A program made the position numbers and the translations under genes. From positions 32,001 to 96,000 of IMG/VR virus record IMGVR_UViG_3300044557_000107: 64,000 nucleotides of DNA. The stretch is one strand, 5' to 3'. This document shows positions 7,137 to 44,081 of this stretch, piece by piece. Under the pieces are notes generated by a model. That model saw only the letters and a list, made by a program, of their open reading frames with translations, was not told the DNA's origin and ran no database searches. This DNA comes from a virus. Its lineage: Duplodnaviria; Caudoviricetes. Position 1 is the stretch's first letter, and each line of letters starts with the position of its first letter.

Positions 7137-7317
7137 ATGAACTACACCATGTTTAAAAACACGGGTTTTTAGGAACGCTGCATGCTTGGGTACCCTAAAG
7201 TACCTAGAGGTTACAGTTATTTACTAAGGGTCGTTCCGACCCAGTTTACTTAAATACCTTTAAGTAACTTATTAAGATACTTGGTTTTCGCATCTAAAGT
7301 TACCTAAGTTCTTTATG
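7137..7317 (-). ncRNA. Putative TnpB omegaRNA A; guide CGUUCUAGUAAUUAGCC...
   Basis: Scaffold homologous to 43967-44081; internal promoter TTACGT(7352-7347)-17-TATACT(7329-7324). Confidence 0.65.
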
Positions 7318-7451
7318 GTTCTTAGTATACCACTAGTTGATTCATCACGTAACTAAAGTAACGTGTTTTATCAACTTTTATTTATAAAATACAATGGCGG
7401 TCATCTAAGATGTTGATTCATCTCGGCATTGAAATACCGAGCTTTCTCAAT
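7137..7451 (-). mobile_element. Composite non-autonomous IS200/IS605 derivative, copy A (outer left end of tnpB-element type + inner ~247-bp mini-element 7137-7383)
   Basis: 7388-7450 nearly matches 42716-42780; 7137-7383 matches copies B and C; ends in GTAGTTCAT like the tnpB element. Confidence 0.88.
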
Positions 7452-8629
7452 TAGAACGGTAAATCATCTTCTGAGATATCAATTGTTTGACCATTATTTG
7501 CGAAAGGATCCGCAGAAGTCTCCAAAGATTCTTTATTCGGTGTGTTATTAGCAACTGGATTAGCTGTAGGCGTATTATCCTTTTCACTTACGGTAGTAAA
7601 CCCGAGACTCGCTGGGCTAGGAGCAACACCCGCAGGAGTTGTATTAGGATTACTATTAGGAATTCCAGTGTTATCTTGAGCAGACACACTCCATGGAGTT
7701 TGTGGGTTTTCTGTAGGATTCCCTTGACTATTTACCGCAGGCGATACAGTTTCCTGAGCATATGGATTTTGCTGATTTGCCATAGGTGGCGTATTAACAT
7801 ACCCTTGGAAGGTAGTCGTTGACGTAGTAACTAATCCCAAAGCTTCATCCATTTTATCAACTGCCCAGCTAACAACTTTAGGCTTGTATTGATAAGATGG
7901 TGTTGCTTGATAATCTAAATCTTCTAATGACTTTTCCCATCCAGCGTCTAATGGTGCCAGCATGTTAGAAGACTGCAAAGAAATGTTAGACTCAAAAATA
8001 TTATTTTTTCCCAGACTACCTGACATATGAACCGGGTATGCAATTAAAGGACTCATGAAACTCCAATCATCAGATCCTTGTACCCCGTATTGTTGAGACA
8101 TCTGTGAATAAAATTGATTACTTGTTGGATTATTTGCCGGGTTCTTTGCTAATGCTTCTAGTTGAGTGAACTGCGTCCAGCTCATACTAAGAACATATAC
8201 TTTATAATTCCCTTGTTCATCCCGAACTTCTTGGTACTGATTATCCTTAAATACTAAAGGAATTACGTTTAAAAGGAACTTAGTAGTGTATCCTCTACCT
8301 GAATTACCATCACGATTATATGGAGTCAAAATGCGTTTTCCCCATCGTGGAATAGCTTGATTTAAAGGATCTTGAGGATCATTCTGAGAAGATGACTGAA
8401 ATACCATACTGCTACGTCCTTTACTAGTATCTAATACCATAGATACTGTTCGGAAATCTTTATAAAAGGTGTTTCCAGTAGGAAGAATACGTACATAGAA
8501 ATCCGGAGTTTTGCGTCCTAGCTTTACTAACCCATTTTTAAGTTTTGTATAAGGCTCTACAATATCATCATTACCTTGTTGTTCGCCATAGGCTTGTGTG
8601 AAACCACTTAATGCTTCTGATAATCCCAT
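7451..8629 (-). CDS. ssb: Single-stranded DNA-binding protein with host-like acidic tip (ISEDDLPF)
   Basis: Synteny before recA; VRILP motif; P/N/Q-rich linker; DDLPF C-terminus. Confidence 0.75.
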   Translation of the reverse strand: MGLSEALSGFTQAYGEQQGNDDIVEPYTKLKNGLVKLGRKTPDFYVRILPTGNTFYKDFRTVSMVLDTSKGRSSMVFQSSSQNDPQDPLNQAIPRWGKRILTPYNRDGNSGRGYTTKFLLNVIPLVFKDNQYQEVRDEQGNYKVYVLSMSWTQFTQLEALAKNPANNPTSNQFYSQMSQQYGVQGSDDWSFMSPLIAYPVHMSGSLGKNNIFESNISLQSSNMLAPLDAGWEKSLEDLDYQATPSYQYKPKVVSWAVDKMDEALGLVTTSTTTFQGYVNTPPMANQQNPYAQETVSPAVNSQGNPTENPQTPWSVSAQDNTGIPNSNPNTTPAGVAPSPASLGFTTVSEKDNTPTANPVANNTPNKESLETSADPFANNGQTIDISEDDLPF

Positions 8630-8663
8630 ATGATTACCCCTTTTCTTTCAATTTACAGTGTTA

Positions 8664-8692
8664 ATTGTAGCACACGATTGATAAAATGGCAA
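8664..8692 (-). promoter_or_regulatory. Sigma-A-like promoter for ssb
   Basis: TTGCCA-17-TACAAT with extended TG. Confidence 0.6.
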
Positions 8693-8694
8693 CC

Positions 8695-9198
8695 CTAATT
8701 ACCATTTCTGTAATCTTTTCTTTGCTCTGCCCCAAATTGAATCAGCATGTCCCTACGCTGTTCAAATGCTTTTACGAGGTACTGAAGCTGTAAGGAAAGT
8801 CGGTGAGACTCATTAACCTTTATAAGCTGCGCTTGATAACCTGTATCCTGTACAATTAAGGACTCAATATGGTCCTTTGTAGCTCGAATACCTTGCTTGC
8901 TAAGATCATTATAAACTTGATTATAATTATCGGATCTAATTTTGCTTAAAAGATTATTCTCGCTTTCTTCCTGTTCCTTACATATTGTATACACAGATGC
9001 CCAGTAAATATAATTAGAAGCTTGCTTAGTATACTCAATCTCATAGTTATCTGCGTTAAACTTTAAAAGATCTGATATGTTATATTCTTGAGCTTCACCG
9101 TTTTGGTCTACCAAACGGATAATATTAAAATCGAAGTTACCGATAGTTACTGTTATTTTACTCGTCATGTTTGTCCCCTCATATTTCTTGATATTCAT
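8695..9198 (-). CDS. UvsY-like recombination mediator (start may be 9168)
   Basis: Helical protein ending KAFEQRRDML; position between polymerase and SSB. Confidence 0.55.
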   Translation of the reverse strand: MNIKKYEGTNMTSKITVTIGNFDFNIIRLVDQNGEAQEYNISDLLKFNADNYEIEYTKQASNYIYWASVYTICKEQEESENNLLSKIRSDNYNQVYNDLSKQGIRATKDHIESLIVQDTGYQAQLIKVNESHRLSLQLQYLVKAFEQRRDMLIQFGAEQRKDYRNGN

Positions 9199-12100
9199 GC
9201 TTACGTTCTTTAAGTTCTTCTAGTCTCTTGTCATAAATATCACTATTTTCTTGGTCATCATCACTGAAATAATTAGAATCCTTTTGGTCGCTTAATTGAC
9301 TTATCTCATAATAGTATTTACAGTAACCTTGTGGTGAATTAAATGTTTTAAAGTCATCATAGTTAAAGTCTACCATATCGTTGTAAGTTAATCCAATAGA
9401 GTCTTCTGCCTCAATAGGGTATCTTACTTTCTTACCATTAATAGTAACTATAAGCCAATCATAAGGTAAGTTTTCCATAATATACTCGGCTTTCTGACCA
9501 GCCTTAGCCGCCTCATCAGCGGGGGAGTCTACTACAACAGAGTCATGAACAGTTAATACTACCCGAGACTTCATTTTGTTATCTATAAAGTATTTATTAA
9601 TGTAATAAATAGCGGTATTAGTTAAGAAAGTCCCAGTTCCTTGAACTATAGTATTTACAGATTGGCGAAGAGCTTTTTTAGATTCCCCCCGATCCCGAGA
9701 CCATATCCCACGAAGCCATCTTCTGAAGCCTGGAACTGTTAAGACATAGCCTTTGTCTTCAACAAACTTGTGGGAGTCATCAATAAACTTCTTCATTTCT
9801 GGCTTAGCATCCATGTACTTTTTTTCAAAGTCTTCGGCTTCTTCTACCGTCTGATTTGTTTGTTTCGCCACCGAAGCAGAACCTCTACCATACAGGATAC
9901 CAAAATTTAAAGACTTTGCGTTTTGACGCATTTGTCGAGTTACTTCATCTTCGGGAATCCCTAAAGCCTGTGCCGCAGTAGCCTTATGAATGTCTTCTCC
10001 ATTAACAAAAGTATCATACATACCTTTATCTCCGGAGATTAACCCCGCAATTCTCATTTCTAGGTTAGCATAATCAATATTGTGAAGAACACCATTAGGG
10101 AACCGGGAAATAAATTCTCGCTTAATAGGATTCTGATAATCGAATCTTCCCACATCTGTAGTTGCATGAGGTAATTGTTGCATATTAGGGTTAGATGCAG
10201 ACAAACGAGATGTTTCAGTTCCGGTCTCTGAAAAAGATCCATGAGAATATCCATCAACATTAGATAAGTGTTTTTTAAGCTTATCTGTAAAATCACTTTT
10301 AAGTGTCTTGACCTTAGCCAATTCAACTAATAAGTTAGCATACTCTTTTTGGAGCTTCGAACCATTATCCTGAATATACTTTAAAGTCGTCTTAGCACTT
10401 AATGAATAATCTTGCCACGTTGCGTCTTCCTTGCTATTCATTTTCTTCCATGCAGAGTCTCCAAAATAATCACTATCAAAAGGAACCTCGGCTTCTAAGA
10501 AATTAAACAAAGCATATCGAATATCAAAAGGAGTTCCTGTAAATCCCAGACTATTTTTAAATTTGTTGCGGTAAACTACTAAATCCTCATCTCGATATCC
10601 AGCTTTTTTGAGTTCTTTAGGATATTTCAAATTACTACCCTTATGCGTATACTCTCGGTATAACTTGTCATATTCCATAAATTTGGCTTTATCTGTATCG
10701 TCCAAATTAGCATCTTTGGCTTTTAGAGGCTTTCCATCAATATCAAACACTAAATGGTACTTAGATTTCTGGAACTCCTTTAGCCCAATATCATACAAAT
10801 TTTGTTTATATTCAATTACTGCTTGAGAAGCAGGAAGATTAGTTAATTCTTTCATGAGCCGATCATACTCATTTTGATAAGACTCTTGTAAATTATTCAT
10901 ATAGTCTATATCTACCGCAATCCCAAAGTTTTGAATCCATACTAGGCCTAATACAATTTTAGGATAAAAGTTAAGCCATAAATCGAGAATCTTATGTTGA
11001 GGGTCCTCTGTATCACTCAACATATAATTTTTCTCCCATTGACAACATCTATAGGTCGCTACAGCATCTCCGCAAGCATAGGGTGTCATAATACTTAATG
11101 GAATCCAATCATAGTTAAACTTACCACCATCGACCTCGTTTACTAGCATGTTTGCCATAGACTCATGCCGGTGCTCATTAATTTGCGGAATAATAATAGG
11201 AATTAAAAGCTTATTTATAATTTCGTCTTGGTTAAACTTGTATTTATTAAAAATACTTAGATCAGTATTTTCTAGAATAGATGGAACGTCTGCATCTGAT
11301 AACATTATACTATCCTTAAGTTGTTCTTTTTTAACTTTATACAGCTCATCCTTTTTATCTAAATTATCTTGAGCTTCCTTAATCTTGCCTTTAAGAATCT
11401 CATAAGCCCCTTTGAGTAATACTTGACTAACCCATTTATGGAAATCTTCCAATGGATCATCGTAACCACCCATATCAGTAAGCTCTTTAGATAAATCAGT
11501 AAGTCTTAGAGATTCTTTTACAGCCTGATTAATGGTTAAATAATAACCATCTTTAGTATCTATAACTTTGTTGAAATTAAAATTATAGTCTTTAAAAGTA
11601 TACATGATCATGCTTAAATCATATTTAGAGTTATGCATTACCTTGTAATTGTTATTAGCATAAATTTGAGCAATCTTTTTAATAATATTGTTTAATTGAT
11701 CAGAACTCCATCCTTTGAAATCTCGATGGTAAATTGGAATTTCATATCCAGTATTGGGGTCCATAGCTATGGTAAATACCAGTATTTTTGCTCCTTTAGT
11801 ATAGGCGTCCAAAGTATTAGTTTCCGTATCTAAAGCAACCAAAGGACTGTTAATAGCCTTATTTAGTACTTCCATTGTTTTATCATAATCATCTAAGAAA
11901 ACACTTTTATATCCTCCTAGATTACTATCAATAGAACCATCCAAAAGATAATCTTTAATATAAGCAAAACCAATATTACGCTTAAACGCTAAATTGGGGT
12001 CTAAATCAATACGTTCTTGAGAATAAATAGGAATAGTCCATTTAGTGCTTTTACTATCAGTCTTCAGGGATCGAGGAAAACTATAATCTACTTTAGAAAA

Positions 12101-12445
12101 CCCCAAATATTTCATACAAGCAATTCCCAAAGGACCTGTAGGGATTACAAGATCTACCTCAGAATCTATAACTTTACTACGTAGTCTCTCATAATAAGGT
12201 TCCATAGAAGATAACTTAGCTTTAGGGACATTATAAGACGTAATATTTCCGTAATAGTCTCTGTTTTTAACTTCTGGTATTTTCGTATAAACATAATCAA
12301 ATACATAATCTTTATTGTATATCATACCAATAGACTTCAAAACCTTAATAAATTCTTTTCCCGTATTGGATTTTGCATAGTCTAATTTACCATCAGCAAA
12401 ATAGTCCTGACGTAAGTATTCTATTAAAACTAAAACTTTAGGCAT
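9179..12445 (-). CDS. polA: Family A DNA polymerase with 3'-5' exonuclease and extended N-terminal domain
   Basis: ALDTET, HNSKYD, YACGD, RLSASNPNMQQLP, DYANLEMR, RQNAKSLNFGILYG and TVHDS motifs. Start MPKV at 12445 preferred over 12490. Uninterrupted. Confidence 0.95.
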   Translation of the reverse strand: MPKVLVLIEYLRQDYFADGKLDYAKSNTGKEFIKVLKSIGMIYNKDYVFDYVYTKIPEVKNRDYYGNITSYNVPKAKLSSMEPYYERLRSKVIDSEVDLVIPTGPLGIACMKYLGFSKVDYSFPRSLKTDSKSTKWTIPIYSQERIDLDPNLAFKRNIGFAYIKDYLLDGSIDSNLGGYKSVFLDDYDKTMEVLNKAINSPLVALDTETNTLDAYTKGAKILVFTIAMDPNTGYEIPIYHRDFKGWSSDQLNNIIKKIAQIYANNNYKVMHNSKYDLSMIMYTFKDYNFNFNKVIDTKDGYYLTINQAVKESLRLTDLSKELTDMGGYDDPLEDFHKWVSQVLLKGAYEILKGKIKEAQDNLDKKDELYKVKKEQLKDSIMLSDADVPSILENTDLSIFNKYKFNQDEIINKLLIPIIIPQINEHRHESMANMLVNEVDGGKFNYDWIPLSIMTPYACGDAVATYRCCQWEKNYMLSDTEDPQHKILDLWLNFYPKIVLGLVWIQNFGIAVDIDYMNNLQESYQNEYDRLMKELTNLPASQAVIEYKQNLYDIGLKEFQKSKYHLVFDIDGKPLKAKDANLDDTDKAKFMEYDKLYREYTHKGSNLKYPKELKKAGYRDEDLVVYRNKFKNSLGFTGTPFDIRYALFNFLEAEVPFDSDYFGDSAWKKMNSKEDATWQDYSLSAKTTLKYIQDNGSKLQKEYANLLVELAKVKTLKSDFTDKLKKHLSNVDGYSHGSFSETGTETSRLSASNPNMQQLPHATTDVGRFDYQNPIKREFISRFPNGVLHNIDYANLEMRIAGLISGDKGMYDTFVNGEDIHKATAAQALGIPEDEVTRQMRQNAKSLNFGILYGRGSASVAKQTNQTVEEAEDFEKKYMDAKPEMKKFIDDSHKFVEDKGYVLTVPGFRRWLRGIWSRDRGESKKALRQSVNTIVQGTGTFLTNTAIYYINKYFIDNKMKSRVVLTVHDSVVVDSPADEAAKAGQKAEYIMENLPYDWLIVTINGKKVRYPIEAEDSIGLTYNDMVDFNYDDFKTFNSPQGYCKYYYEISQLSDQKDSNYFSDDDQENSDIYDKRLEELKERKHEYQEI

Positions 12446-12476
12446 TATATTACCAACTTTCTTAATTATACTAAAA

Positions 12477-12507
12477 TAAGGGTACCACAAAGGTATCCTT
12501 AAGTCAA
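12477..12507 (-). promoter_or_regulatory. Palindrome overlapping a candidate promoter, upstream of the polymerase
   Basis: TAAGGATACC-N5-GGTACCCTTA-TTTT; TTGACT-17-TACCCT. Confidence 0.5.
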
Positions 12508-12516
12508 GTTAAAATA

Positions 12517-13290
12517 TTAATTTTGTTTTAATGCCTGATCTAGGCTAATCTTATGCCCATGACTAACAACATTCCCTTGATCACAGTCTCTATAGTAATT
12601 CAACAGAGCCTTTTCAGATACATTATTTGCTACTAATTGAATTCCCATACCCCACACTGATAGTGGCTGTTGCATAATCTTAAAGCATCTGAACTTATCC
12701 TCGGAATTAAGCAAGTAACTATCATTTACTTTATGATAATATCTTTCGCTATCTTTTGTAAGTTGAGACTCTTGCTTGCTTGGAAAGTTTAAAATTATTT
12801 GATCAACATTTGTATGAACTTGATACAGTCCAAAAAGAAGTTGTTCCGGGTCATCTTCTGGGAGACTGATATTAAGACTTAAAATAACTTCGGTAGCTTT
12901 AAAGGCTTCCTGAATATTAGTGACCATATCACCATATTCTTGATACTTATCCCATAAGTAAACTAAAGTCCCATTGGAGTACCTATTAAAAATATCCATG
13001 ATCTCTACAGGAATTGTATCTTCTGTATAAACATAAATATGAGCTACCTTTGGAGCCATTAATTCAATTAATTCAATATCCTTTTCAGTAGTACTATAAA
13101 ACTCATAAACGTCATTTAGATGCTCTAAATGATCAATTACAGAACCTTCAGTATTACTAAATACCTTTTTCAGACTATCAAAGTTTGCCTCAGTAACTTT
13201 TTGGCGTAATGCATAGTCACTAGGAATAACTAAGTTAAGATTATATTTATGGGTTGTATTATAGATTACTGGACGTTTCTGCTTTACCAT
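12517..13290 (-). CDS. Hypothetical phage protein
   Basis: 257-aa ORF in the replication operon. Confidence 0.6.
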   Translation of the reverse strand: MVKQKRPVIYNTTHKYNLNLVIPSDYALRQKVTEANFDSLKKVFSNTEGSVIDHLEHLNDVYEFYSTTEKDIELIELMAPKVAHIYVYTEDTIPVEIMDIFNRYSNGTLVYLWDKYQEYGDMVTNIQEAFKATEVILSLNISLPEDDPEQLLFGLYQVHTNVDQIILNFPSKQESQLTKDSERYYHKVNDSYLLNSEDKFRCFKIMQQPLSVWGMGIQLVANNVSEKALLNYYRDCDQGNVVSHGHKISLDQALKQN

Positions 13291-13549
13291 GATCCTTTAC
13301 CTTTGCTTTCCATGCTTTTATTTTCCCAATATTAAAGTCGTTCCATTCATCTACTTTTACGCCATCTTTGAATATCCTAACTAAGGGCGCCGATAGCATA
13401 TTAAGTTTATCCATATAGGATATCACATCACTATTAGTATTGCTCATTCGATCTATTAACTCCATATCAACAGGCATTGGGCTTAACTGCATCTCCGTAA
13501 GACGACATTTTTGACAACCTTTGGTATGAAATATTTGTGCAGTATACAT
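13259..13549 (-). CDS. nrdH: NrdH-like glutaredoxin
   Basis: CQKC active site, SAP motif, W.DF. Confidence 0.75.
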   Translation of the reverse strand: MYTAQIFHTKGCQKCRLTEMQLSPMPVDMELIDRMSNTNSDVISYMDKLNMLSAPLVRIFKDGVKVDEWNDFNIGKIKAWKAKVKDHGKAETSSNL

Positions 13550-13577
13550 TTAATCAAATCCCCTTGTATGCACTATA

Positions 13578-14102
13578 TCAAACAAACAAGTAGGGTAGAT
13601 CCAGTCTTTTAAGTAGCTGATTCGTTAACTTCTTATAGTCCTTTGTAACATCTTTAGGAATATTGCTCATGTAATGAAGATAGTTAATGTACACGTCATC
13701 TTTAATTAAATTCTGGGGGTATCCTAAGTTACTTGCTAGTTTCTTATAGTGCTCTTTTATATATTTATATAGCTCTATTAATTTAGTTGATTCTATCGAA
13801 AAATCTAAATTAAATTTAAATAGCTTAGGAACAACATCCAAAGCAAGTATGATCTGGCCAACAGCATCTAGTATAAACTGATATTGATACTGGTCGTCAC
13901 TAGATTTAATACTTGAAGAGTCTAAAAGTATCTTCGATACCTGATCATAGTATTCCCATGGTTCAATTGGACTTGGAAGATCTTTAAGTATATTATTAAG
14001 ACCAAAATTCTCAAAAATAGGCTTAGAATTAGGAATATCTTCTATAAGTTTATTATAGTAAGACTGCCATGTCGTATATTTAAAAGACGTCATTAATATC
14101 AA
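13578..14102 (-). CDS. Hypothetical phage protein
   Basis: 174-aa ORF. Confidence 0.55.
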   Translation of the reverse strand: MILMTSFKYTTWQSYYNKLIEDIPNSKPIFENFGLNNILKDLPSPIEPWEYYDQVSKILLDSSSIKSSDDQYQYQFILDAVGQIILALDVVPKLFKFNLDFSIESTKLIELYKYIKEHYKKLASNLGYPQNLIKDDVYINYLHYMSNIPKDVTKDYKKLTNQLLKRLDLPYLFV

Positions 14103-16536: not shown

Positions 16537-16543
16537 GGAAACA

Positions 16544-16882
16544 CCTCGCTACAATAAACTTATAAAATATTGCTAATATAAGTCTAAATTCCTGCTTCTT
16601 CCTATCCCTGTTCTACTATTAGATTAGTAATAGCTACTTAGGTTTGTATAATAGCCCACAAGCGTAAATTCCCGTTTAGCCAGCGGTACATATTTAAGTA
16701 GCAGTCTAATAAGCTAACTTGAATTTAGAAGTGTTACAGATATTCTCACTAGCGTTAATATCTCTATCTAGGTGCGAACAACAATTGGGACAATCCCACT
16801 TTCTCACACTAAGGAATCGTTGTCCCATTGTTCTAAAGGCTTCGTTATAGAAGCCACATTGTGAGCATGTTTTAGAGCTAGG
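16544..16882 (-). pseudogene. tnpB: Remnant of a second TnpB element (probably IS607-type): Zn-finger/RuvC-III fragment plus structured 3' end
   Basis: PSSKTCSQCG...RKWDCPNC..HLDRDINASENI, then GTACCGCTGGCTAAACGGGAATTTACGC...GAAGCAGGAA, unlike the 3' end of the intact element. Right boundary approximate. Confidence 0.75.
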
Positions 16883-17133
16883 GTGAACCACTCGTTACTA
16901 AAGTAACGAGCTTCTAGGAACACTGCATACTTGGGTACCCTAAAGTACCTAGAGGTTACAGCTATTTACTAAGGGTCGTCCCGACCCATATTAGTTTACT
17001 TTAAGATTCTTAAGTAACTTATTAAGATACTTGGTTTTCGCATCTAAGGTTACCTAAGTTCTTTATGGTTCTTAGTATACTACTAGTTGATTCATCACGT
17101 AACTAAAGTAACGTGTTTTATCAACTTTTATTT
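16883..17133 (-). mobile_element. 251-bp non-autonomous IS200/IS605 mini-element, copy B, with omegaRNA
   Basis: Preceded by TTAT; left hairpin CACGTTACTTTAGTTACGTG; right hairpin CTCGTTACTTTAGTAACGAG; ends TTCAC. Confidence 0.9.
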
Positions 17134-17141
17134 ATAAATAA

Positions 17142-20845: not shown

Positions 20846-20872
20846 TTTTAAGCCCCCTTCAGTTAACTAAAA

Positions 20873-20903
20873 TAAGGATACCACTAAGGTATCCTTAAAG
20901 CAA
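20873..20903 (-). promoter_or_regulatory. Palindrome overlapping a candidate promoter, upstream of sbcD
   Basis: TAAGGATACC-N5-GGTATCCTTA-TTTT; TTGCTT-17-TATCCT; near copy of 12477-12507. Confidence 0.5.
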
Positions 20904-20904
20904 A

Positions 20905-22419
20905 TTATACTCGTAGATCCTCTGGAATATTATTCCGTAATTCTGATAGTTCTTTCTCCGACTTTTTAAAGGCTTCTGGTTTATGCCCCTTATTCCCAAT
21001 ACTTGATAGCAAATTATCATGATTATCACTTTCATCAGGTGTCTCACATGAAATTCTAACAGTCTTGGTATTAACTTTAAATTTTAACATAGAGTTACGT
21101 TGAGGATCCTCAGTAGATTCCGGACGATTACGACTCTTATCTACATAAATACGCATAAACCCTTTAGAAAACTCTTCACTAGTCTGGTTGAGTGTTCCAC
21201 AAAATTCTACAGAGTTTAATTTCTCTTTAGAACCTTCAATACTTTGAACAGTTTTAATATCCTGAGTATACGCAGTCCGATTAGTTTGAGACACAACCCA
21301 AAGAACTACCTTATACCGATTAGCTACTGCTCGGAGTTCATGGTATAAGCGACCCATAGCTGAATATTCATTAATACCTTTACGCTCAAAAGGATTATTT
21401 AGTAATTCAGGATAGTCAATGACAACCACGTCCGGATATGCCCCATCTCGCCTTAAAGTATCATTCAAGACTCGTTCAATGTCTTTAGGAGTTAATTGAT
21501 AGGGTTCCTTTACCCACAAGCGAACATCTCCTACACGTTTCTCTTCATATGCTTTTTCCATGTACTTATTTAATTGCTTAAACTTTTCTTCGTCTAACTT
21601 AGGTTCTATTTTATTCCCATCATCGTCTTTGTCTTTATAATAGAAATGACGATTTTGGTTACTTAGCAAAGATAACATTTTATTTTCCATACGTGCCATG
21701 CGCTCTTCCAAAACAAAGTATAATACATGCTTCCCGTTAAGCACATAGTTAGTGGCCAAGTTCATTAATAACGTTGTCTTACCAGTTCCAGAAGGTGCCA
21801 CTAGCATACCCATTTCACCATATCCTAGTCCGCCATCGGTAACTTCGTCTAAGTTATCCCATCCTGTAGACAAAGAATTACCATAGGTTTCTTTAGCGTA
21901 CTCAATTCGAAGATCTTCGTCTTCTGGCTTAAACATGCTTAGAGTTTCACCAAGATCATCGTCATTCGTTACATGGGAAATTTCATCTAAGTCTTGAGCT
22001 AGTGATTCCAGGCCCTGTTGACTATTATCATTGTCTAAAATATATCGCTTAATTCGCTTAACAGTTAGCTGGTTATATAACCACTTCGTTGTTTCTTGTT
22101 CAATTAACTTAGTATTACTAAAATTTTCACCATTAGCTACTTGTACGATGTCATTAATATCCTGTACAAAATTCAAGTACAAGTCATCCGTATATTTACG
22201 CCGCTTTTTTAAATCTACGCTAATAGCTATTTTTAGCTCTTCACTGCTAATAGCACTATCATGACTCTGATAATGCTTTGTAATATACTTAGCTAAATCT
22301 AAATACTCTCCATAAATATCTTCTGTTAAAGGAACCTTAGAAAACCCTTTCGTCCCATAAGAAGTGTCAATTAAAGAACGATAAAATATTTGCTTTAATG
22401 TTTCTTCCAAATCATGCAC
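20905..22419 (-). CDS. dnaB: DnaB-like replicative helicase
   Basis: TGWDNLD...GG, APSGTGKTT, LEE, IDY, SQTNR and KSRNR motifs. Confidence 0.9.
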   Translation of the reverse strand: MHDLEETLKQIFYRSLIDTSYGTKGFSKVPLTEDIYGEYLDLAKYITKHYQSHDSAISSEELKIAISVDLKKRRKYTDDLYLNFVQDINDIVQVANGENFSNTKLIEQETTKWLYNQLTVKRIKRYILDNDNSQQGLESLAQDLDEISHVTNDDDLGETLSMFKPEDEDLRIEYAKETYGNSLSTGWDNLDEVTDGGLGYGEMGMLVAPSGTGKTTLLMNLATNYVLNGKHVLYFVLEERMARMENKMLSLLSNQNRHFYYKDKDDDGNKIEPKLDEEKFKQLNKYMEKAYEEKRVGDVRLWVKEPYQLTPKDIERVLNDTLRRDGAYPDVVVIDYPELLNNPFERKGINEYSAMGRLYHELRAVANRYKVVLWVVSQTNRTAYTQDIKTVQSIEGSKEKLNSVEFCGTLNQTSEEFSKGFMRIYVDKSRNRPESTEDPQRNSMLKFKVNTKTVRISCETPDESDNHDNLLSSIGNKGHKPEAFKKSEKELSELRNNIPEDLRV

Positions 22420-29848: not shown

Positions 29849-29874
29849 TTTATTAATACCTCTTTCTTTTTTAT

Positions 29875-30125
29875 AAATAAAAGTTGAGAAAACACGTTAC
29901 TTTAGTTGCGTGATGAATCAATTAGTGATATACTAAGAACTATAAAGAACTTAGGTAACCTTAGATGCGAAAACCAAGTATCTTAATAGGTTGCTTAAGT
30001 ATATTTAAGTAAACCAATATGGGTCGGGACGACCCTTAGTAAATAGCTGTAACCTCTAGGTACTTTAGGGTACCCAAGTATGCAGTGTTCCTAGAAGCTC
30101 GCTACTAAAGTAACGAGTGGTTCAC
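29875..30125 (+). mobile_element. 251-bp non-autonomous IS200/IS605 mini-element, copy C, with omegaRNA
   Basis: TTAT at 29871-29874; hairpin 29893-29912; promoter TTGCGT(29906)-17-TATACT(29929); scaffold 30019-30125 ending TTCAC. Confidence 0.9.
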
Positions 30126-30135
30126 TTCCTTCTTT

Positions 30136-30726
30136 CTAGTTCGCTAATAGAATTTCAATGGGAACAATCGCGCTTAAAGTAACTTGAGTATTACTTTGAG
30201 GATAAATTGGGGATATATTAGAGTATTCTATTAGTGTTCCTGTATTAGATATTTCTGTAGGCTTTAAAATAGTTTTTTGTGTACTAGCAGTAACTCCCAA
30301 GCAAATCCCATATTGTCTAAAACCATTAGTAATTGAAATATCACTATTAGTAAATGATGTTACGAAATAGACACAATCAGGTACATTAGTTGCACTAAGA
30401 TTACTTTCATCCATTATTTCGTAGGTAGTACCTTGAAATTCTATTGTACTTACAGGTACTGAAGTTGTCGTTGTAGTAGTGGTAGTAGAGTTACTTGTTG
30501 TAGTCGTGGTAGTAGTCGGAATAGTATATTTTTTTAAGGGGACTGCTTTAGTTGCTTGAACGTAATACTGAATATCTTCAAGATTGCTTGTAGTTACACT
30601 TTCTGTATCCGGGGTAGCTTCATTGATCCAAGCACTTGTTTTACCCAATGAAAAGTATATTTGAGTTACGTTACTAATCAAATATTTATATATTAAATTT
30701 TTTAAGTTATTTGTTGGGGTTGCCAT
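30136..30726 (-). CDS. Baseplate protein with internal poly-Thr insertion
   Basis: LGKTSAW..E..P and GFRQYG motifs; synteny. Confidence 0.75.
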   Translation of the reverse strand: MATPTNNLKNLIYKYLISNVTQIYFSLGKTSAWINEATPDTESVTTSNLEDIQYYVQATKAVPLKKYTIPTTTTTTTSNSTTTTTTTTSVPVSTIEFQGTTYEIMDESNLSATNVPDCVYFVTSFTNSDISITNGFRQYGICLGVTASTQKTILKPTEISNTGTLIEYSNISPIYPQSNTQVTLSAIVPIEILLAN

Positions 30727-37151: not shown

Positions 37152-37179
37152 TAATACACCTTCTTTTTATTATCAAAGT

Positions 37180-37187: not shown

Positions 37188-37194
37188 TTGTACT

Positions 37195-37228
37195 AAAAAG
37201 GACTACATACCAACTATGTAGTCCTTTT
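37195..37228. terminator. Rho-independent terminator
   Basis: AAAAGGACTACATA-loop-TATGTAGTCCTTTT. Confidence 0.8.
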
Positions 37229-37231
37229 ACC

Positions 37232-37456: not shown

Positions 37457-37462
37457 TTTGGA

Positions 37463-37825
37463 TTACTCGCTTTCTGTAGTAGTGGTTGTTGTGGTTGTGG
37501 AGGTGCTCGATGGAATGCTAGATAGAGATACTCGAATATCATTCACATCGTCTTCGGAAGAAATGGTATGAACACTTGATAGGACTATAGGTAAGTCTGC
37601 CATAAATAAAGGATTATTTTTTAGGGTAACAAGATCTTGATAGATACTATCAGTATCTTTATAGTCTACATATAGTATTCCCTGCTGTGCTTTTGCCAAT
37701 AGGTCTGTAGATAATTGACTACTAATATTATTCCAAGCACTTTCACATTTATCTTGAATAGCCTCATTGGCTGTTTTTTGTGCTTGTGTATAGGCATTTT
37801 CTATTTCTGAAAGATCAAAACTCAA
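37463..37825 (-). CDS. Hypothetical protein with poly-Thr C-terminus
   Basis: TTG start with GAAGGAAG RBS. Confidence 0.6.
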   Translation of the reverse strand: MSFDLSEIENAYTQAQKTANEAIQDKCESAWNNISSQLSTDLLAKAQQGILYVDYKDTDSIYQDLVTLKNNPLFMADLPIVLSSVHTISSEDDVNDIRVSLSSIPSSTSTTTTTTTTESE

Positions 37826-37843
37826 TTAAATTCTTCCTTTCTT

Positions 37844-40800
37844 TTAATCGTCCCACCGAGGAACCCAAGGTTGTGGAATATTTCCAATAGACATCTGAGG
37901 CATTTTAAACGACATTGAAGTATTGTTGGGCCCGGAAGCAACATTGAAATGTATATGGGAAATATCAGCAGAAGTTGTAGTCATTCCAGACCACTCATAA
38001 TATTTATAAGTATGTCCTGAAGTTTCTGTGGGGGTAGTAAGTGTAGCGGTTTGTACTAGGTTACCAGAAGAATCATAAAATTGAACAAAACAATACCATC
38101 CATTATTATTACCATTCCAAGAGGCTTCATATATGCTAAAATAAAATGGATTATTTGTTTGATTTAGGGGAGAAAGAGAATCTACCCATGCAATACTATT
38201 ACCAGATCCTAACCACGCTGAAGGAGTACCAAACGCATCATAAGTTCCGGATCCAAAATCACCGGATCCAGATGAACGTTGCCATGTATCGAATTTTACA
38301 CTATGGGGTATTAGATTAACATGAAGATGACCATGAAATAAGAAATCCCGGAAAGAACTTCCTGTGGAAAGATCATTTCCATTTTTTTGAGCGGTCTCAT
38401 CTGCAAAAGTCCCATAGTAAGCCATGTCTGCCGCAGTTATATCTATTGGTTCTGGTAGAGAGCTTCCCCAAAAATACAAGTCTTCAGGAACAATGTTAAG
38501 TGCGGCTCCGGTTACATCCCGCATGTCAAGGCTAGATGCACCTATATTTAAGTAGCTAAAGTTTTTAACATTATTTGCAGTTTCTTCTGAGTTAATACTG
38601 ATAGTCCCTAAAGGAGAAACCTGAGTAGTAATAGTAAACTCATCCGTGCTTGAAACCGTGTTCTTATTCTCAAGAATAACTCCTAAGAATGGTGAAACGG
38701 AAGAACTCATAGTACTGTTATATGCTCTATCTTGTGCTGGAACCCACGCAGTAGCTGTACTACCCGATTCATATTTTATCATGCTTATTAGCAAAACACC
38801 AGTTCCACCGAGGTATAGTTTAAGAACACCGGCAGTATCCGTGGCGGTAATTGAAGCAGAATACTTAGCCCAACTAGTAGTTACCGTAAATGTATTACTA
38901 GTTTTATCAGATGTGGTTATACTTGTGTTTCCACTGATAGATTTAGCATAGAAAGAAACCGTGGTAGTTGAACCGCTAGAAAAAGCGCCTTGAGAAGTAT
39001 AGTCCAAACCAACATAATTGCTACTATCTCCCGCACCTGTAGACGTTATTTTAAGGCTTCCAATGTACAAATTCTTAGGAGCAGAACTAGGATAATCATC
39101 TGTATCAATAACATAGGTATGATTACCGGATTCTGTAATAGAATCCGTTCCTAAAGACTGATCATAGGCATATCCGCCAGCATTGAACTGAGAAAAGTTC
39201 AGGTAGTTAGGTGGAAGGGGGGTATTATCACTAGTATACTGGAATGACTGATTATCAATAGTCCAATTTTCAGAAGCTAAATACCCCTTACCTGAATCTA
39301 CTTGAGTATTAGAATAAGGACCTCCAGATACAATCATATCCCCGGTTATTTCAAGTTCTTGACCAAAGAGACTGATCTTTTTATCAGTAATAGTAAATCC
39401 AGTAGTTATTTGAGATTCTGTTACATAGGTATTCGTGGCGTCATCTTTAGTAAGGTACGTTCCGGATACTTCGGCGGTAATAGACGTGGCAGTTTGCTCT
39501 ATCTTGCTTTCAGCGCTAGCTAAAGTAGCACTGGCGGCACTATCTGTGTACGAATTAGCACTTGATAGTGCAGTGGCTCCAGCGGCGCTTGCCGCGCTAT
39601 CGGCGTGAATATTAGCACTTGACAGTGCAGTGGCTCCAGCGGCGCTTGCCGCGCTATTAGCGTGAATATTAGCACTTGACAGTGCAGTGGCTCCAGCGGC
39701 GCTTGCCGCGCTATCGGCGTGAATATTAGCACTTGACAGTGCAGTGGCTCCAGCGGCGCTTGCCGCGCTATCGGCGTGACTATTAGCAGAGCTTAACGTT
39801 GCTGAATTAGCACTTGAAGTTTCATCCTTAGTCGTGTAGGTAGCACTTACAGTATCTGTAATAGATGTGGCTGTTTGCTCCATTTCAGACTTTGTAGAGT
39901 ACGTTGTGGCCGCCGCACTGTTTGTCAAATAATTATTTGCTAGATCCGTATTGATAGCTGAAACTTCTGTGTCTATTTTGGTAGATGTTTCCGTAATTTT
40001 AGACGCATTTTGCTGAATATTAGTGTTCATTGTGTTAATTTCATCAGAGTCTAAAACATTTTGAGTTATGGTTTCCATAACTGTTGATGAAATCATATCA
40101 GGAGTAACCTTAAAATCAGAGAATTTAGTATCTATATAATTTTGAGTATCTTCTGGGGCGGCACTCCATGATGATGGGGTATTACCATGTTCTAGCATTA
40201 AGTAACTAATCGTTATCTTAGTGTTAGTTGGCATTTTAATTGTTAAAGTATGGTCGTTTCCAGAAATAGTTTTCCAATTTTCAAAGGTATACGTAAAGGA
40301 TCCGGTTAACGTAGTTGGTTCCCATAGATAAGAATTACCCCCAGTATCATCGGCAATAGTAATCTGCTCTAAGCTACTCAGTGTATATTTGAAAGATAAA
40401 GTTACAGGTTCAATTAAGTTACCGATATTACTAGATAGGTTATATAGAGTTCCATTAGTAGTTACAGATACCGCGGTTCCTGTTTCTAAGGCAAAGTTAA
40501 CTCCACCAACCGAAGTACTAGTTAATGAGGTTAATGTTCCTTGTAAAGTTGTTTCAATAGTTGCATAGCTATCTTTAGTAGCGCTTGCTAAATCACTAAA
40601 TGCTGATTGATAGCTATTAATTGCAGAGTTCATACTAGTAGAACTATAAGATAAACTAGAGGATACGGTGGCCAGATAACTGTTTAAGTTAAGATAAGCT
40701 GTTTTTAGAGCACTCGTATCATTTCCAGAACGAGTAGCTTCTTGATACATTTCTGCGTAGGTACCTTCAAGTGTATTTACTCCAGTTTTAATACTAGATA

Positions 40801-42571
40801 GTTGTGAATTGCTAATAGCTCCTGTGTTGATACTTGATATTGTATTTTGTAATGATACAATATCGCTGTTCATTGTAGACATTTCCGAATTTATGGTATC
40901 TTGATAGGACTTAGCTTTTTCAATTAGCAAGCTTAAAATAGACACGTTAGCAATCATGTCTTGAGGTGCCGGAGTCCAGCTAGTTAATGAATCTGTTTTA
41001 GCAAATTTAACTAAATATATAGAACTCGTTGTGGAAGATGAGGTATTATCTCCGCTAGAGGATGTAGTTGTCGTTGTAGTTACATTTTGAGAAACACTAA
41101 TGCTTACTTTAATATATGAAGTATCTTTACTGGTCAATATATGCTGGGATAAATCCATATTATCTTTATCCGCAGTTAAATAGCTGTAATCAATAAAATT
41201 ATTATTACTATCATATTCAGCCCAAGCTAAAGTAGTACCATTTAATACACCATATGCAGATACATAGTAGTCATCTTCCCCGCTAACAGACATACTTGCA
41301 GAAGTTACTCCTGTAGAATCGGTAATAAGCGATCCATCAGTAGAACTTATGCGGCTTCCTGATGTGGACATAGTAAGCGAAAATAAATTAGTAGCGGTAG
41401 CATCATTTCCATATAAGGTGTAAATAGTATCATTTTTACTAATAGTTTCTGTAGCACTAAGTTCAATCTTATCTGTAAGTTGGTTAATTGACGTTTGGGT
41501 GTCATTGTATCCTTTGGAAAGCGTTTCAATTTGTTCTAAAGTAGTTTTTTGCTGATTTTGCTGGTTAATAATACTCTTTTTAATGTCAATAGCGTCATCG
41601 CCAGTACCAATAGTGAGTCCATCAGAAGTTAGACTAAAAGGATCACCACTACCTGCGCTAATTGTAATACCATTTTTACCAACTTGAAGATATATTTCAT
41701 CGCCATTATCAGAGTTTCTAAGTTTAGACGTTGGCTGATAACGTAGTTGTGACGTTCCATCGTGGTTAAGTTCAATAGATCCTCGATAGTCTTCATTTTT
41801 ATCCATTGTACTTACCCGAGCATCACCATTTTGGTTAACAGCTAGAAGGGTCTCATGGGTATCCGTATTATTATTTTTGTCTAGTATTCCTTGATGCTTT
41901 AATAGAATACTGGGTGCTTTTGAGTTTATAGGTTCTATCTCGGTATTATCACTAAAGTAACTCGTATCAAGGTTATTATAACCAGGACCTTCTAAAGTAT
42001 CATCCATTGGATCTTGAAGGTCTACATTATCGGATTGTAGCATTAAGAAAGTCTTACCATTAAATGATAAAACTTCGTTTCCAAGTCCATCTTTAGACTT
42101 GTATGTTTGATCAGGATAAACCACAAACTGTTGTCCAATGGTTCCTTGATCGTTTGGAGAGTCGCTATCCGTACTATTATCTGGATCTCGACTGAGCTGT
42201 TCCATTACTGCGTCGTTTCCTACAATTGACAATACAATAGGAGTTTTACCGTCTTCATTAAGAAAACCAACAATGATATAATCTCCAGTATTTACTGGGT
42301 TAATTGCACCGTAAGGTTTTCCATAGCCATTTTGTCCGCTAAAAGACACAGGTAATCGGGCACTAGATTGTCCATTCAGATCAGAGCTATGAGAATAGCT
42401 GGCTCCAGTATACATATCCGTAAAATCTACGGAGTTATTTGAGTGGTATACTTTAGTTACTCTTCCAAGAGTTAGCCGACTAATTCTTGAATTACTTTGA
42501 GTATTTCTAACTACTTGTTTTCCAAGAGAAGATTGGAGTCTTTGGTTCAAATTTACGTATTCTTCGGACAA
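37844..42571 (-). CDS. Central tail spike/fibre-like protein (conserved N-terminus, coiled coils, CBM-like modules)
   Basis: RLQSSLG and SARLPV..G...YG N-terminus; WTPAPQD, WSAAPED and WVPAQD module ends. Confidence 0.7.
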   Translation of the reverse strand: MSEEYVNLNQRLQSSLGKQVVRNTQSNSRISRLTLGRVTKVYHSNNSVDFTDMYTGASYSHSSDLNGQSSARLPVSFSGQNGYGKPYGAINPVNTGDYIIVGFLNEDGKTPIVLSIVGNDAVMEQLSRDPDNSTDSDSPNDQGTIGQQFVVYPDQTYKSKDGLGNEVLSFNGKTFLMLQSDNVDLQDPMDDTLEGPGYNNLDTSYFSDNTEIEPINSKAPSILLKHQGILDKNNNTDTHETLLAVNQNGDARVSTMDKNEDYRGSIELNHDGTSQLRYQPTSKLRNSDNGDEIYLQVGKNGITISAGSGDPFSLTSDGLTIGTGDDAIDIKKSIINQQNQQKTTLEQIETLSKGYNDTQTSINQLTDKIELSATETISKNDTIYTLYGNDATATNLFSLTMSTSGSRISSTDGSLITDSTGVTSASMSVSGEDDYYVSAYGVLNGTTLAWAEYDSNNNFIDYSYLTADKDNMDLSQHILTSKDTSYIKVSISVSQNVTTTTTTSSSGDNTSSSTTSSIYLVKFAKTDSLTSWTPAPQDMIANVSILSLLIEKAKSYQDTINSEMSTMNSDIVSLQNTISSINTGAISNSQLSSIKTGVNTLEGTYAEMYQEATRSGNDTSALKTAYLNLNSYLATVSSSLSYSSTSMNSAINSYQSAFSDLASATKDSYATIETTLQGTLTSLTSTSVGGVNFALETGTAVSVTTNGTLYNLSSNIGNLIEPVTLSFKYTLSSLEQITIADDTGGNSYLWEPTTLTGSFTYTFENWKTISGNDHTLTIKMPTNTKITISYLMLEHGNTPSSWSAAPEDTQNYIDTKFSDFKVTPDMISSTVMETITQNVLDSDEINTMNTNIQQNASKITETSTKIDTEVSAINTDLANNYLTNSAAATTYSTKSEMEQTATSITDTVSATYTTKDETSSANSATLSSANSHADSAASAAGATALSSANIHADSAASAAGATALSSANIHANSAASAAGATALSSANIHADSAASAAGATALSSANSYTDSAASATLASAESKIEQTATSITAEVSGTYLTKDDATNTYVTESQITTGFTITDKKISLFGQELEITGDMIVSGGPYSNTQVDSGKGYLASENWTIDNQSFQYTSDNTPLPPNYLNFSQFNAGGYAYDQSLGTDSITESGNHTYVIDTDDYPSSAPKNLYIGSLKITSTGAGDSSNYVGLDYTSQGAFSSGSTTTVSFYAKSISGNTSITTSDKTSNTFTVTTSWAKYSASITATDTAGVLKLYLGGTGVLLISMIKYESGSTATAWVPAQDRAYNSTMSSSVSPFLGVILENKNTVSSTDEFTITTQVSPLGTISINSEETANNVKNFSYLNIGASSLDMRDVTGAALNIVPEDLYFWGSSLPEPIDITAADMAYYGTFADETAQKNGNDLSTGSSFRDFLFHGHLHVNLIPHSVKFDTWQRSSGSGDFGSGTYDAFGTPSAWLGSGNSIAWVDSLSPLNQTNNPFYFSIYEASWNGNNNGWYCFVQFYDSSGNLVQTATLTTPTETSGHTYKYYEWSGMTTTSADISHIHFNVASGPNNTSMSFKMPQMSIGNIPQPWVPRWDD
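39554..39788. repeat. Coding VNTR, four 57-bp units plus a partial unit
   Basis: ATTAGCACTTGA recurs at 39554, 39611, 39668 and 39725; encodes SSANIHADSAASAAGATAL. Confidence 0.95.
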
Positions 42572-42593
42572 AATTCCACCACCTTTTCGTTAA

Positions 42594-42601
42594 TAATATA
42601 G
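42594..42601 (-). promoter_or_regulatory. Putative late promoter CTATATTA
   Basis: About 25 nt upstream of the 1575-aa tail gene. Confidence 0.6.
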
Positions 42602-42668
42602 TTTTTTTTAATAATTTTACGTGTATTATAAATAGACCTGAAAGGATCTATTTTTGTGCTATAGAATG

Positions 42669-42696
42669 TTGACAATTTTGAATCCTATGCTATAAT
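42669..42696 (+). promoter_or_regulatory. Consensus sigma-A promoter reading into the tnpB element
   Basis: TTGACA-16-TATAAT with extended TG. Confidence 0.75.
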
Positions 42697-42808
42697 ATAC
42701 TTATTACCAAGTTAGTTGAGAAAGCTTGGTATTTTAATGCCGAGATGAATCAACGTCTTGAGTGACCACCATTGTATTTTGTAATATAATTAGAAGAGGT
42801 GATAATTA

Positions 42809-43945
42809 ATGACTTTGAAAGGAATCAAACTAAGAATCTACCCTAATAGAGAACAACAATTAAAGATTAAACTTAACTTTGGATATAACAGATTTGTTTG
42901 GAATCAGATGTTAGACATGATGATTAAACGCTATGAAAATAATCCCGAAGCGCCTTTTCTGGGAGCCTATACCCTAGATAAACTATTACCAACCCTAAAA
43001 TGTGAATACCCATTCTTAAAAGATGCTGAATCTACCAGTCTTCAAAATACTAATCATGACTTGATTGAAGCTTATAAGAAATTCTTTAGAGAACACAAAG
43101 GATTTCCTAAGTTTAAATCACGTAAATTTCCTAAGCAGAGTTACCAATCAAAAATGGGAATTAGCAAGGCTTCAACAAATTATTTAAAGCTACCTAAGAT
43201 TGGTGTTGTTAAAGCCAAAGGACAAATACCAGACTGTAAAATTAATAGGGTTACTATCAGATTATCTGCCACAGGAAAATTCTATGTGGTTTTGTTAGTT
43301 GATACAGATATTAATAGTCTTCCTAAAACTAATAATGCCGTAGGCATTGACATGGGTGTAGCAGATCTGATGATTACTAGTGATGGTATTAAATATCCCA
43401 CGATTAGATTTGATAAACTCCTCAGTAAAAAGAAACATTATTGGGAGAAACGGTTAGCTAGACGTAGACTGCAAGCTAAGAAGGAAATAGCTTGGGATAA
43501 GCATAATAAAGTAGCAGAGCCACATGAATTAAGTGATTTCAAGAACTACCAAAAAGCTAAAACTATGGTTGCCAAGTATAATGAGAAAATAGCTAACCAG
43601 CGCAATGATTATCTTCATAAGTTAACTAAGTCTTTAGTAGAGCAGTATGATGTGATTAAGATTGAAGATTTGAAAGCCAAAAATCTTCTAAAGAATCACA
43701 AGCTCGCTAGAGCAATTGCTAACCAATCATGGAGAGAACTACGTACACAGTTAGAATATAAATGTGAATGGTATGGTAAACAACTAGTCATTGTTAACCC
43801 CAGAAAAACATCACAAATTTGCTCTAATTGTGGTTATGATGATGGTAAACACACATTGGATATTCGACAGTGGACATGTCCTATGTGTGGTACCCATCAT
43901 GATAGAGATATTAATGCTGCTAAGAACATCTTAGCTAGTGAATAA
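42809..43945 (+). CDS. tnpB: RNA-guided endonuclease TnpB
   Basis: LRIYPN HTH; RuvC residues in GIDMG, IEDL and DRDINAA all intact; CSNC/CPMC Zn finger. Confidence 0.96.
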   Translation: MTLKGIKLRIYPNREQQLKIKLNFGYNRFVWNQMLDMMIKRYENNPEAPFLGAYTLDKLLPTLKCEYPFLKDAESTSLQNTNHDLIEAYKKFFREHKGFPKFKSRKFPKQSYQSKMGISKASTNYLKLPKIGVVKAKGQIPDCKINRVTIRLSATGKFYVVLLVDTDINSLPKTNNAVGIDMGVADLMITSDGIKYPTIRFDKLLSKKKHYWEKRLARRRLQAKKEIAWDKHNKVAEPHELSDFKNYQKAKTMVAKYNEKIANQRNDYLHKLTKSLVEQYDVIKIEDLKAKNLLKNHKLARAIANQSWRELRTQLEYKCEWYGKQLVIVNPRKTSQICSNCGYDDGKHTLDIRQWTCPMCGTHHDRDINAAKNILASE

Positions 43946-44081
43946 CCAATAAAGACAAAGACTAACATGGGCTGGGGCAGCCCTTAGTAAATAGCCATAA
44001 CCTCTATTTAGTACTCTAGTAGTATTAAACAAGTATGTGGTGTTCCTAGAAACCTGTGTTTTTAAACACAGTGTAGTTCAT
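43946..44081 (+). ncRNA. Cognate omegaRNA scaffold of TnpB; guide UUCGGACGAGCAACAUC...
   Basis: Structured right end downstream of tnpB; 5' end unknown. Confidence 0.7.

Follow-up and report, generated by a model that had tools for sequence, protein, structure and literature searches.

The phage genome to which this stretch of DNA belongs, a 139,820-bp IMG/VR virus record with direct terminal repeats that is rated complete, raises the question of whether a TnpB nuclease can be served by guide RNAs from single units scattered through the genome of its carrier. The analyzed window comprises bases 32001-96000 of this record (64,000 nucleotides, nt), and positions are given in window numbering unless they are marked as genome positions. 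In a first-pass annotation of the window, one intact TnpB had been described together with three gene-less elements, here called A, B, and C, which were proposed to act as stand-alone omegaRNA cassettes with promoters of their own. The location of all three was borne out by blastn against the whole genome, with E values from 1e-88 to 1e-112, and by repeat finding. The elements are about 250 nt long, contain no open reading frame (ORF) of at least 50 amino acids (aa), and share a structured scaffold with the 3' end of tnpB-1 and the right end behind it. Altogether, it is probable, though by no means certain, that RNAs are made from these elements, are loaded in trans onto TnpB-1 and/or TnpB-3, and cut joints consisting of a target-adjacent motif (TAM) and the guide, and that recombination then restores or spreads the element.

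Architecture and RNA structure of the mini-elements

B and C are 94% identical over 259 nt (blastn). In the re-oriented alignment (A and B from the minus strand, C from the plus strand) the scaffolds of B and C showed an identity of 95%, and the scaffold of A an identity of 81-83% to both. All copies end exactly at GTTCA(C/T) and diverge right afterwards, which agrees with the four guides quoted in the first-pass annotation. The 5' hairpin claimed there is real and corresponds to the left-end hairpin of IS200/IS605 elements followed by ATGAAT; in B, it reads CACGTTAC-TTTA-GTTACGTG before this motif. The same combination of hairpin and ATGAAT was found upstream of tnpB-1, tnpB-2, and tnpB-3 and of related tnpB genes elsewhere, with covarying arms. 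A further hairpin, whose arms also covary between copies, lies 8-10 nt short of the right terminus, and no terminal inverted repeats are present. Both hairpins are located at IS608-like distances from the ends. The order within a mini-element would accordingly read left end, remnant of the last tnpB codons, scaffold, and right end. Together with two additional copies outside the window, D and E (Table 1), the three elements are non-autonomous deletion derivatives of IS200/IS605-family tnpB elements, comparable to palindrome-associated transposable elements (PATEs). The window revealed no CRISPR-like array; its copies stand singly and scattered, at distances of 9.7-20.7 kb from one another. An Rfam search of the window gave no match, and Rfam contains no family for the RNA.

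For the scaffold, the last 145 nt of 21 copies were aligned, of which eight originate from this genome, eight from other viral contigs, and five from bacteria. The alignment showed 34 consensus pairs, 19 of them with compensatory double changes. Of the covarying helices listed in the first-pass annotation, GGGCTG/CAGCCC versus GGGTCG/CGACCC and GCCA/TGGT versus GCTG/CAGT were recovered, whereas TAACTT/AAGTTA was not supported, as RNAalifold favors different base pairs and this helix contains a mismatch in B, D, and E. The mini-elements keep 32-34 of the 34 core pairs (34 in B and 33 in C), which is the same as in the tnpB-linked copies. The earlier description of A, B, and C as derivatives that lack a gene but carry an omegaRNA with an intact scaffold is thus supported.

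In addition to this core, the mini-elements comprise a specific 5' hairpin, for which copies from three phage records and one short viral contig were compared. It consists of an invariant GAAAACCAA loop on four different paired stems and folds in nine of ten cases. This hairpin is the best sign that selection acts on the stand-alone RNAs themselves.

One of the helices of the core allows for another interpretation. The GGGTCG...CGACCC helix and a T-rich run resemble a terminator on the strand opposite to the omegaRNA in A-E, and C lies antisense inside the baseplate operon. The elements might then serve the phage as punctuation of DNA or RNA, e.g. as terminators or antisense promoters in operons, and any guide function would be irrelevant. 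However, the T-tracts are poor, the same helix covaries within the omegaRNA fold of bacterial tnpB-linked copies, and the orientation relative to the phage genes is inconsistent, with A and B in sense and C in antisense. Punctuation is thus considered highly improbable.

Table 1. Features of the mini-elements, the tnpB-1 element (T1), their flanks, and the TnpB-family genes of the phage (window positions, unless "genome" is stated)
Feature	Position	Strand	Remarks
Element A, composite	7137..7462	-	outer type-I left end and inner type-II left end; scaffold ends GTTCAT
A, outer left-end hairpin	7441-7422	-	followed by ATGAAT; 84-87% identical to the left ends of tnpB-1/tnpB-2
A, inner type-II left end	starts 7383, after TTTAT (7388-7384)	-	hairpin 7365-7346
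A, -10 TATACT	7329-7324	-	sequence reading
A, omegaRNA scaffold	~7318 to 7137	-	33/34 core pairs kept
A, guide/flank	7117..7136	-	begins CGTTCTAGTAATTAGC; last codons and stop of the ancestral ssb end
Element B, type-II ends	16883..17138	-	TTTAT 17138-17134; left end from 17133; scaffold ends GTTCAC at 16883
B, -10 TATACT	17079-17074	-	no TG extension
B, guide	16882-16863	-	inside destroyed tnpB C-terminal fragment
B flank, destroyed tnpB fragment	16706..16882	-	C-terminal ~60 residues, zinc finger and RuvC-III
Element C, type-II ends	29870..30125	+	TTTAT 29870-29874; left end from 29875; scaffold ends GTTCAC at 30125
C, -10 TATACT	29929-29934	+	TG precedes
C, guide/flank	30126..30145	+	begins TTCCTTCTTTCTAGTT; overlaps stop codon of baseplate wedge gene (30136-30138)
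T1, tnpB-only element, type-I ends	42705..44081	+	left-end hairpin 42725-42744; ends GTTCAT at 44081; 34/34 core pairs
Promoter by T1	42669..42696	+	TTGACA, 16-nt spacer, TG, TATAAT; scan 12/12
T1, guide/flank	44082..44101	+	begins TTCGGACGAGCAACAT; 3' end of NlpC/P60 tail lysin gene
TnpB-1	42809-43945	+	378 aa; full length, D/E/D intact
TnpB-2	genome 10605-11648	-	347 aa; 87% identity to TnpB-1; D/E/D intact
TnpB-3	genome 128920-130065		381 aa; 69% identity to TnpB-1; full length, D/E/D intact
TnpB-4	genome 120959-122347		462 aa; 31% identity to TnpB-1; full length, D/E/D intact
TnpB-5	genome 131253-132524		423 aa; 24% identity to TnpB-1; RuvC-I Asp and RuvC-II Glu lost
TnpB-6	genome 110021-111232	-	403 aa; 27% identity to TnpB-1; full length, D/E/D intact
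Mini-element D	genome 102882-103105		outside window; among phage tRNA genes
Mini-element E	genome 103497-103741		outside window; among phage tRNA genes

End types, promoters, and mobility

Two types of ends were distinguished. Type I comprises tnpB-1, tnpB-2, and the outer left end of A, with a left hairpin CTTGGTAT…ATGCCGAG and a right hairpin CxGTGTTT…AAACAxxG; its right end finishes with GTTCAT, and the left flank is compatible with TTAC. Type II comprises tnpB-3, B, and C and, in a decayed form, D and E, with a left hairpin of the CACGTTAY type and a right hairpin CTCGTTAC…GTAACGAG; here, the right end finishes with GTTCAC, and the left flank is TTTAT. The ends of B and C are therefore of the tnpB-3 type and not of the tnpB-1 type. 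Seven elements whose flanks are unrelated have TTTAT at the boundary of the left end, 17-19 nt ahead of its hairpin, namely tnpB-3, B, C, A (at its inner left end), and three elements from other genomes. The TTAT motif proposed earlier is contained in this TTTAT 5' of the left ends of B and C, for which it is thereby supported, and of the inner left end of A.

Element A is a chimera of both types, in which a type-I left end (7462-7390) precedes a complete type-II left end and the scaffold. Its last 94 nt are 94.7% identical to the right end of tnpB-2, but only 76% to that of tnpB-1. In the simplest history, the left end of a type-I tnpB element would first have received a type-II mini-element by insertion, and a recombination between the two scaffolds would then have deleted tnpB. 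No target-site duplication was seen for B and C. In A, CGTTCTA occurs twice, as the initial 7 nt of the outer left end and again as the initial 7 nt of the right flank. Such a repeat would not be expected from the insertion of an IS200/IS605 element, which makes no target duplications. The two copies of this 7-nt direct repeat are located at 7451-7462, at the outer left-end junction of A, and at 7130-7136, just past the right end.

An internal promoter had also been claimed for A, B, and C. While the -10 box TATACT is present in all three, only TTACGT or TTGCGT is found at the -35 position, with two to three matches out of six. The -10 box lies downstream of the left-end hairpin, where the full-length left end of tnpB-3 has its promoter, a perfect TTGACA-16-TATAAT directly after the hairpin (12/12). 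The mini-elements of other phages comprise TTGACA or TTGATA, a 16-nt spacer, and TATACT or TATAAT, and the promoters of D and E reached 11/12 each, with spacers of 17 nt and 16 nt, respectively. This agreement points to the ancestral left-end promoter of tnpB as the origin of the mini-element promoter. D and E have kept the -35 box. Both have lost the 3' arm of the left-end hairpin, D also the 5' arm, and the TAM is degraded in both. Judged by the state of hairpin, TAM, and promoter in each copy, A-C look mobile and have weak promoters, whereas D and E look immobile and have strong ones. Read-through from phage genes of the same orientation could also account for a transcription of A and B; C runs antisense to the baseplate operon.

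These differences bear on a simpler explanation, according to which the mini-elements are inert relics similar to miniature inverted-repeat transposable elements, i.e. recent transposition products that owe their structure to youth and functional parents and are used by no TnpB. The lone -10 boxes of A, B, and C, which are not called as promoters, would agree with this, and B and C, with an identity of 94-95%, could be young. Likewise, A is chimeric as a result of recombination, B is placed on the relic of another insertion sequence, and most of the covariation is found between lineages, each of which possibly descends from a different tnpB-linked parent. On the other hand, D and E lack the left-end hairpin and the TAM, which are features of mobility, and yet show promoters of 11/12 and 32-33 of the 34 scaffold pairs. 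Relics would also not be expected to keep the loop of the mini-element-specific 5' hairpin on a stem that covaries across the copies of several phages, or to show the same architecture in at least three phage records. Altogether, inert relics appear rather unlikely, although this explanation deserves to be taken seriously.

Regarding the origin of the elements, neither Y1_Tnp nor a serine recombinase was found in the phage genome. The same ends enclose tnpA (Y1) and tnpB in Lentilactobacillus kosonis, Liquorilactobacillus sicerae, and Secundilactobacillus pentosiphilus. By means of a conserved 23-nt motif of the scaffold, members of the family were retrieved from four species of Lactobacillaceae and two more large phage contigs of IMG/VR. 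The two contigs, 3300044557_000104 with at least four scaffold copies and 3300029822_000001 with at least eight, are large phages of the Lactobacillaceae type, and both include gene-less mini-elements in the order left end, promoter, 5' hairpin, and core. For the two IMG/VR phages sharing the elements, the flanking proteins are only 26-36% identical and the flanks show no DNA match.

The phage itself is known from a metagenome only. Its baseplate protein is 42-44% identical to the counterparts in SPO1-like myophages of Lactobacillus brevis and Listeria, which points to a distant Herelleviridae-like phage. The host is probably a lactobacillus, and a virulent lifestyle is presumed. Two further repeats were observed in the window. 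Four to five tandem 57-nt repeats (39519-39803) lie inside a tail-fibre-like ORF of 1575 aa and encode SSANxHADSAASAAGATAL units. A 51-nt intergenic repeat, found at 12461-12511 and 20857-20907 with 82% identity, contains a GGGTACC...GGTATCC hairpin; it probably serves the replication module as a common terminator or regulatory site.

TnpB genes, guides, and the proposed function

The description of one intact TnpB is true only inside the window. By tblastn and ORF calling, six TnpB-family ORFs were found in the genome, five of which keep the D/E/D residues of RuvC. For TnpB-1, the intact D/E/D was confirmed; HTH_OrfB, OrfB_IS605, and TNB domains were identified in the protein, and its alignment to ISDra2 TnpB is end to end, covering residues 4-374 (E 2.6e-58). 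Likewise, the picture of one nuclease with four guides has to be replaced by five mini-elements, at least three related TnpBs (TnpB-1, -2, and -3), and three distant ones in a genome of 139.8 kb. TnpB-2 has lost its start and about 33 residues, among them the HTH_OrfB part, to a 107-nt deletion, and the protein is probably inactive. Within the tnpB-2 element (genome 10605-11741), this deletion joins the left end to codon ~34.

The perfect sigma-70-type promoter by T1 belongs to the phage flank and is directed into tnpB-1; 8 nt separate it from the left end of T1 downstream. It is part of a module of a hairpin (terminator) and TTGACA-16-TG-TATAAT that is duplicated in the genome, at window 42640-42704, between two minus-strand structural genes, and at genome 25950-26004. 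A further observation concerns the coding region of tnpB. A perfect 8-bp hairpin, GAAGATTT-GAAAACCAA-AAATCTTC, was found in the codons around the RuvC-II Glu (EDLKTKNLL), for example at genome 129784-129808 in tnpB-3 and at genome 10868-10892 in tnpB-2. It is conserved at synonymous sites among phage and bacterial TnpBs with an identity of 66-85% and may reflect a constraint at the RNA level inside the coding region. A link between this hairpin and the mini-element hairpin with the same loop was rejected, since the alignment places the mini-element hairpin opposite to the codons of the last tnpB residues and the 9-mer occurs often in this A-rich genome.

TnpB-5 is of full length, its RuvC-I Asp being lost (VVLGV) as well as its RuvC-II Glu (IINRP), and it is a TldR-like, nuclease-dead TnpB. 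The mini-elements could be domesticated guide genes for a role without cutting, in which the RNAs act on dead TnpB-5, or with short matches on TnpB-1 or TnpB-3, for a TldR-like repression or marking of DNA. Besides the presence of a TnpB without RuvC-I Asp and RuvC-II Glu, the immobilized D and E with their strong promoters would suit such a role. However, TnpB-5 is only 24% identical to TnpB-1 and has no related scaffold. In addition, A, B, and C keep their mobility features, and the guides match only their own TAM-less flank, so that no plausible regulatory target exists in the genome. A role without cutting is accordingly regarded as very unlikely.

Each 16-nt guide matches its own flank alone in the genome, and this flank follows the right end and not a TAM. 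The possibility that the guides are aimed at other loci of this genome was rejected, as no second site with at most three mismatches and a preceding TAM was found in it. Concerning the genes next to the guides, the annotated loci were correct for A at the 3' end of ssb, for C in the baseplate operon, and for T1 at the lysin stop; B belongs to none of these three loci, its flank being a remnant of tnpB and no phage gene. The ORF upstream of the A flank matches phrog_1867, a single-strand DNA-binding protein (SSB). The C-terminus of SSB reads EDDLPF with or without element A, because CGTTCTA repeats at the outer left end of A and in the right flank. C occupies the gap that separates the stop codon of the BW3TFN baseplate gene from the ribosome-binding site of the DUF4815 gene. 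In the NlpC/P60 tail lysin gene, which lies on the opposite strand to T1, the stop codon is provided by the last 4 nt of T1.

In the case of B, the flanking fragment showed a match to Pfam Cas12f1-like_TNB (E 7e-12), and its best blastx match is TnpB-4 with 48% identity. Since B is nested in this destroyed tnpB, which is of another family, the guide of B is tnpB sequence. The relic of a seventh tnpB extends over 16540-16891 on the minus strand; its last ~60 codons (PSSKTCSQCG ... DRDINASEN) continue from the right end of B and are followed by a non-coding tail of ~165 nt up to the primase start, which may be the scaffold remnant of this other element. Joined to the right flank, the left flank of B reads LIIYPSSKTC and resembles the usual TnpB motif. 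The nesting of B in an insertion-sequence relic weakens the claim of a deliberate targeting of ssb, baseplate, and lysin.

Taken together, trans-loaded cutting by TnpB-1 and/or TnpB-3 would proceed as follows. An internal deletion would have placed the left end next to the omegaRNA region, which the right end follows, and the left end would bring along the hairpin recognized by TnpA and, behind it, the tnpB promoter. Movement would depend on a Y1 TnpA, which the phage does not possess and which Lactobacillaceae hosts encode inside elements with the same ends. Transcription would start from the promoter remnant of the left end or, for A and B, result from read-through from phage genes on the same strand, and the product would comprise the scaffold followed by ~16-20 nt of flank as guide. 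These RNAs could be loaded in trans onto a compatible TnpB of the phage, TnpB-1 or TnpB-3. Cutting would be expected where a TAM directly abuts a match to the guide, with TTTAT as the motif for B and C and probably TTAC for A and T1. Such a joint would be present at the scarless donor site after excision by a host TnpA, or at the empty site of a co-infecting relative. Recombinational repair from the occupied genome would restore the element in the first case or spread it in the second.

Several observations weigh against this reading. A deletion removed the -35 box from A, B, and C, which all went uncalled in the promoter scan, and in B the TG extension is missing as well. One mismatch is present in the terminal hairpin of each of C, D, and E. 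Over the full length of the scaffold, the mini-elements are only 47-68% identical to tnpB-1, -2, and -3, and the compatibility of mini-elements and TnpBs is therefore an assumption. A pairing of each mini-element with a TnpB by end type was tried and rejected, since the bacterial TnpBs beside type-II ends are closer to TnpB-1 than to TnpB-3. The end type does not follow the TnpB phylogeny and hence gives no basis for assigning a partner nuclease to a mini-element. The closest right end to that of A belongs to TnpB-2, which lacks ~33 N-terminal residues. The nesting of B in another insertion-sequence relic fits a plain selfish insertion. Finally, a megablast of the flanks against 50,697 phage records returned tnpB matches only and no empty site, so that TAM and boundaries had to be deduced from the comparison of multiple copies. 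The baseplate protein had no relative in IMG/VR or the JGI metagenomes, and the exact 27-nt flank pattern had no match in metagenomes; close phage relatives exist, with baseplate proteins of 97, 96, and 90% identity.

A more far-reaching version of trans-loaded cutting is multi-guide, RNA-directed homing and exclusion. Here, one or two TnpBs with at least five stand-alone omegaRNAs would act on co-infecting relatives, whose alleles at ssb, the baseplate operon, the tail lysin, and the tRNA island would be cut where they are free of the element, and would drag the flanking alleles into the progeny. D and E, with mobility lost and consensus promoters gained, would be a step towards fixed guide genes owned by their carrier and, if this holds true, an early stage on the way from a transposon guide to a CRISPR-like guide set. 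We put this forward as a tentative possibility that is more doubtful than likely.

Comparison with known systems

According to PMC10691335 (citing Altae-Tran 2021), stand-alone omegaRNAs without effector, which were evidently mobilized, work in trans, and PATE-like elements have been described to encode omegaRNAs that need TnpB in trans (PMC10055086). Since both are published, the elements fall into an already described class, here in a phage that is unusually rich in OMEGA components. The step of homing between phages is plausible; transposon homing into co-infecting phages has been discussed as a theoretical category (2026 review, PMC13565253); a literature search found no paper showing homing for a phage TnpB. 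If the RNAs are made and loaded, the phage would represent a compact natural case of one or two TnpBs served by dispersed stand-alone guides, and a direct system for RNA-guided homing between co-infecting phages. Moreover, the contrast of A-C with D and E offers a testable picture of a transposon guide becoming a fixed gene of its carrier.

Compared to the stand-alone omegaRNAs, as summarized in PMC10691335, the mini-elements are alike in being gene-less, evidently mobilized loci that share a genome with effector-bearing loci, where they would provide extra guides in trans. In contrast, the elements described here are phage-borne and keep a remnant of the left-end promoter, their activity in trans is a prediction, and D and E have consensus promoters without mobility features. 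The PATE-like elements of Geobacillus stearothermophilus (Meers et al. 2023, PMC10055086) likewise show subterminal hairpins at both ends and no protein gene, and their omegaRNA would need the TnpB of another element, with TnpA also acting in trans. Different from these, the carrier is a phage without tnpA and not a bacterial chromosome, the TAM is TTTAT or TTAC, and one copy is a chimera.

With regard to the nuclease, TnpB-1 resembles the ISDra2 TnpB-omegaRNA complex (PDB 8bf8, 8h1j, 8ex9) in the D/E/D residues and the zinc finger, in a scaffold that overlaps the 3' end of tnpB and the right end, and in a guide that directly follows the right end. Differences concern the organism, the TAM, and the sequence of the scaffold, and the mini-elements have no protein gene. 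Compared to TldR, TnpB-1 and TnpB-3 keep D/E/D and hence do not display the loss of the RuvC catalytic residues that characterizes this type of effector, while the dead TnpB-5 has no related scaffold. With the free-standing homing endonucleases of T-even phages (intronless homing, PMC13565253), the proposed outcome would be shared, namely that an element-free allele is cut and repaired from the occupied genome. In contrast to these endonucleases, the recognition would be RNA-guided and set by the presence or absence of the insertion, instead of a polymorphism that is read by a protein.

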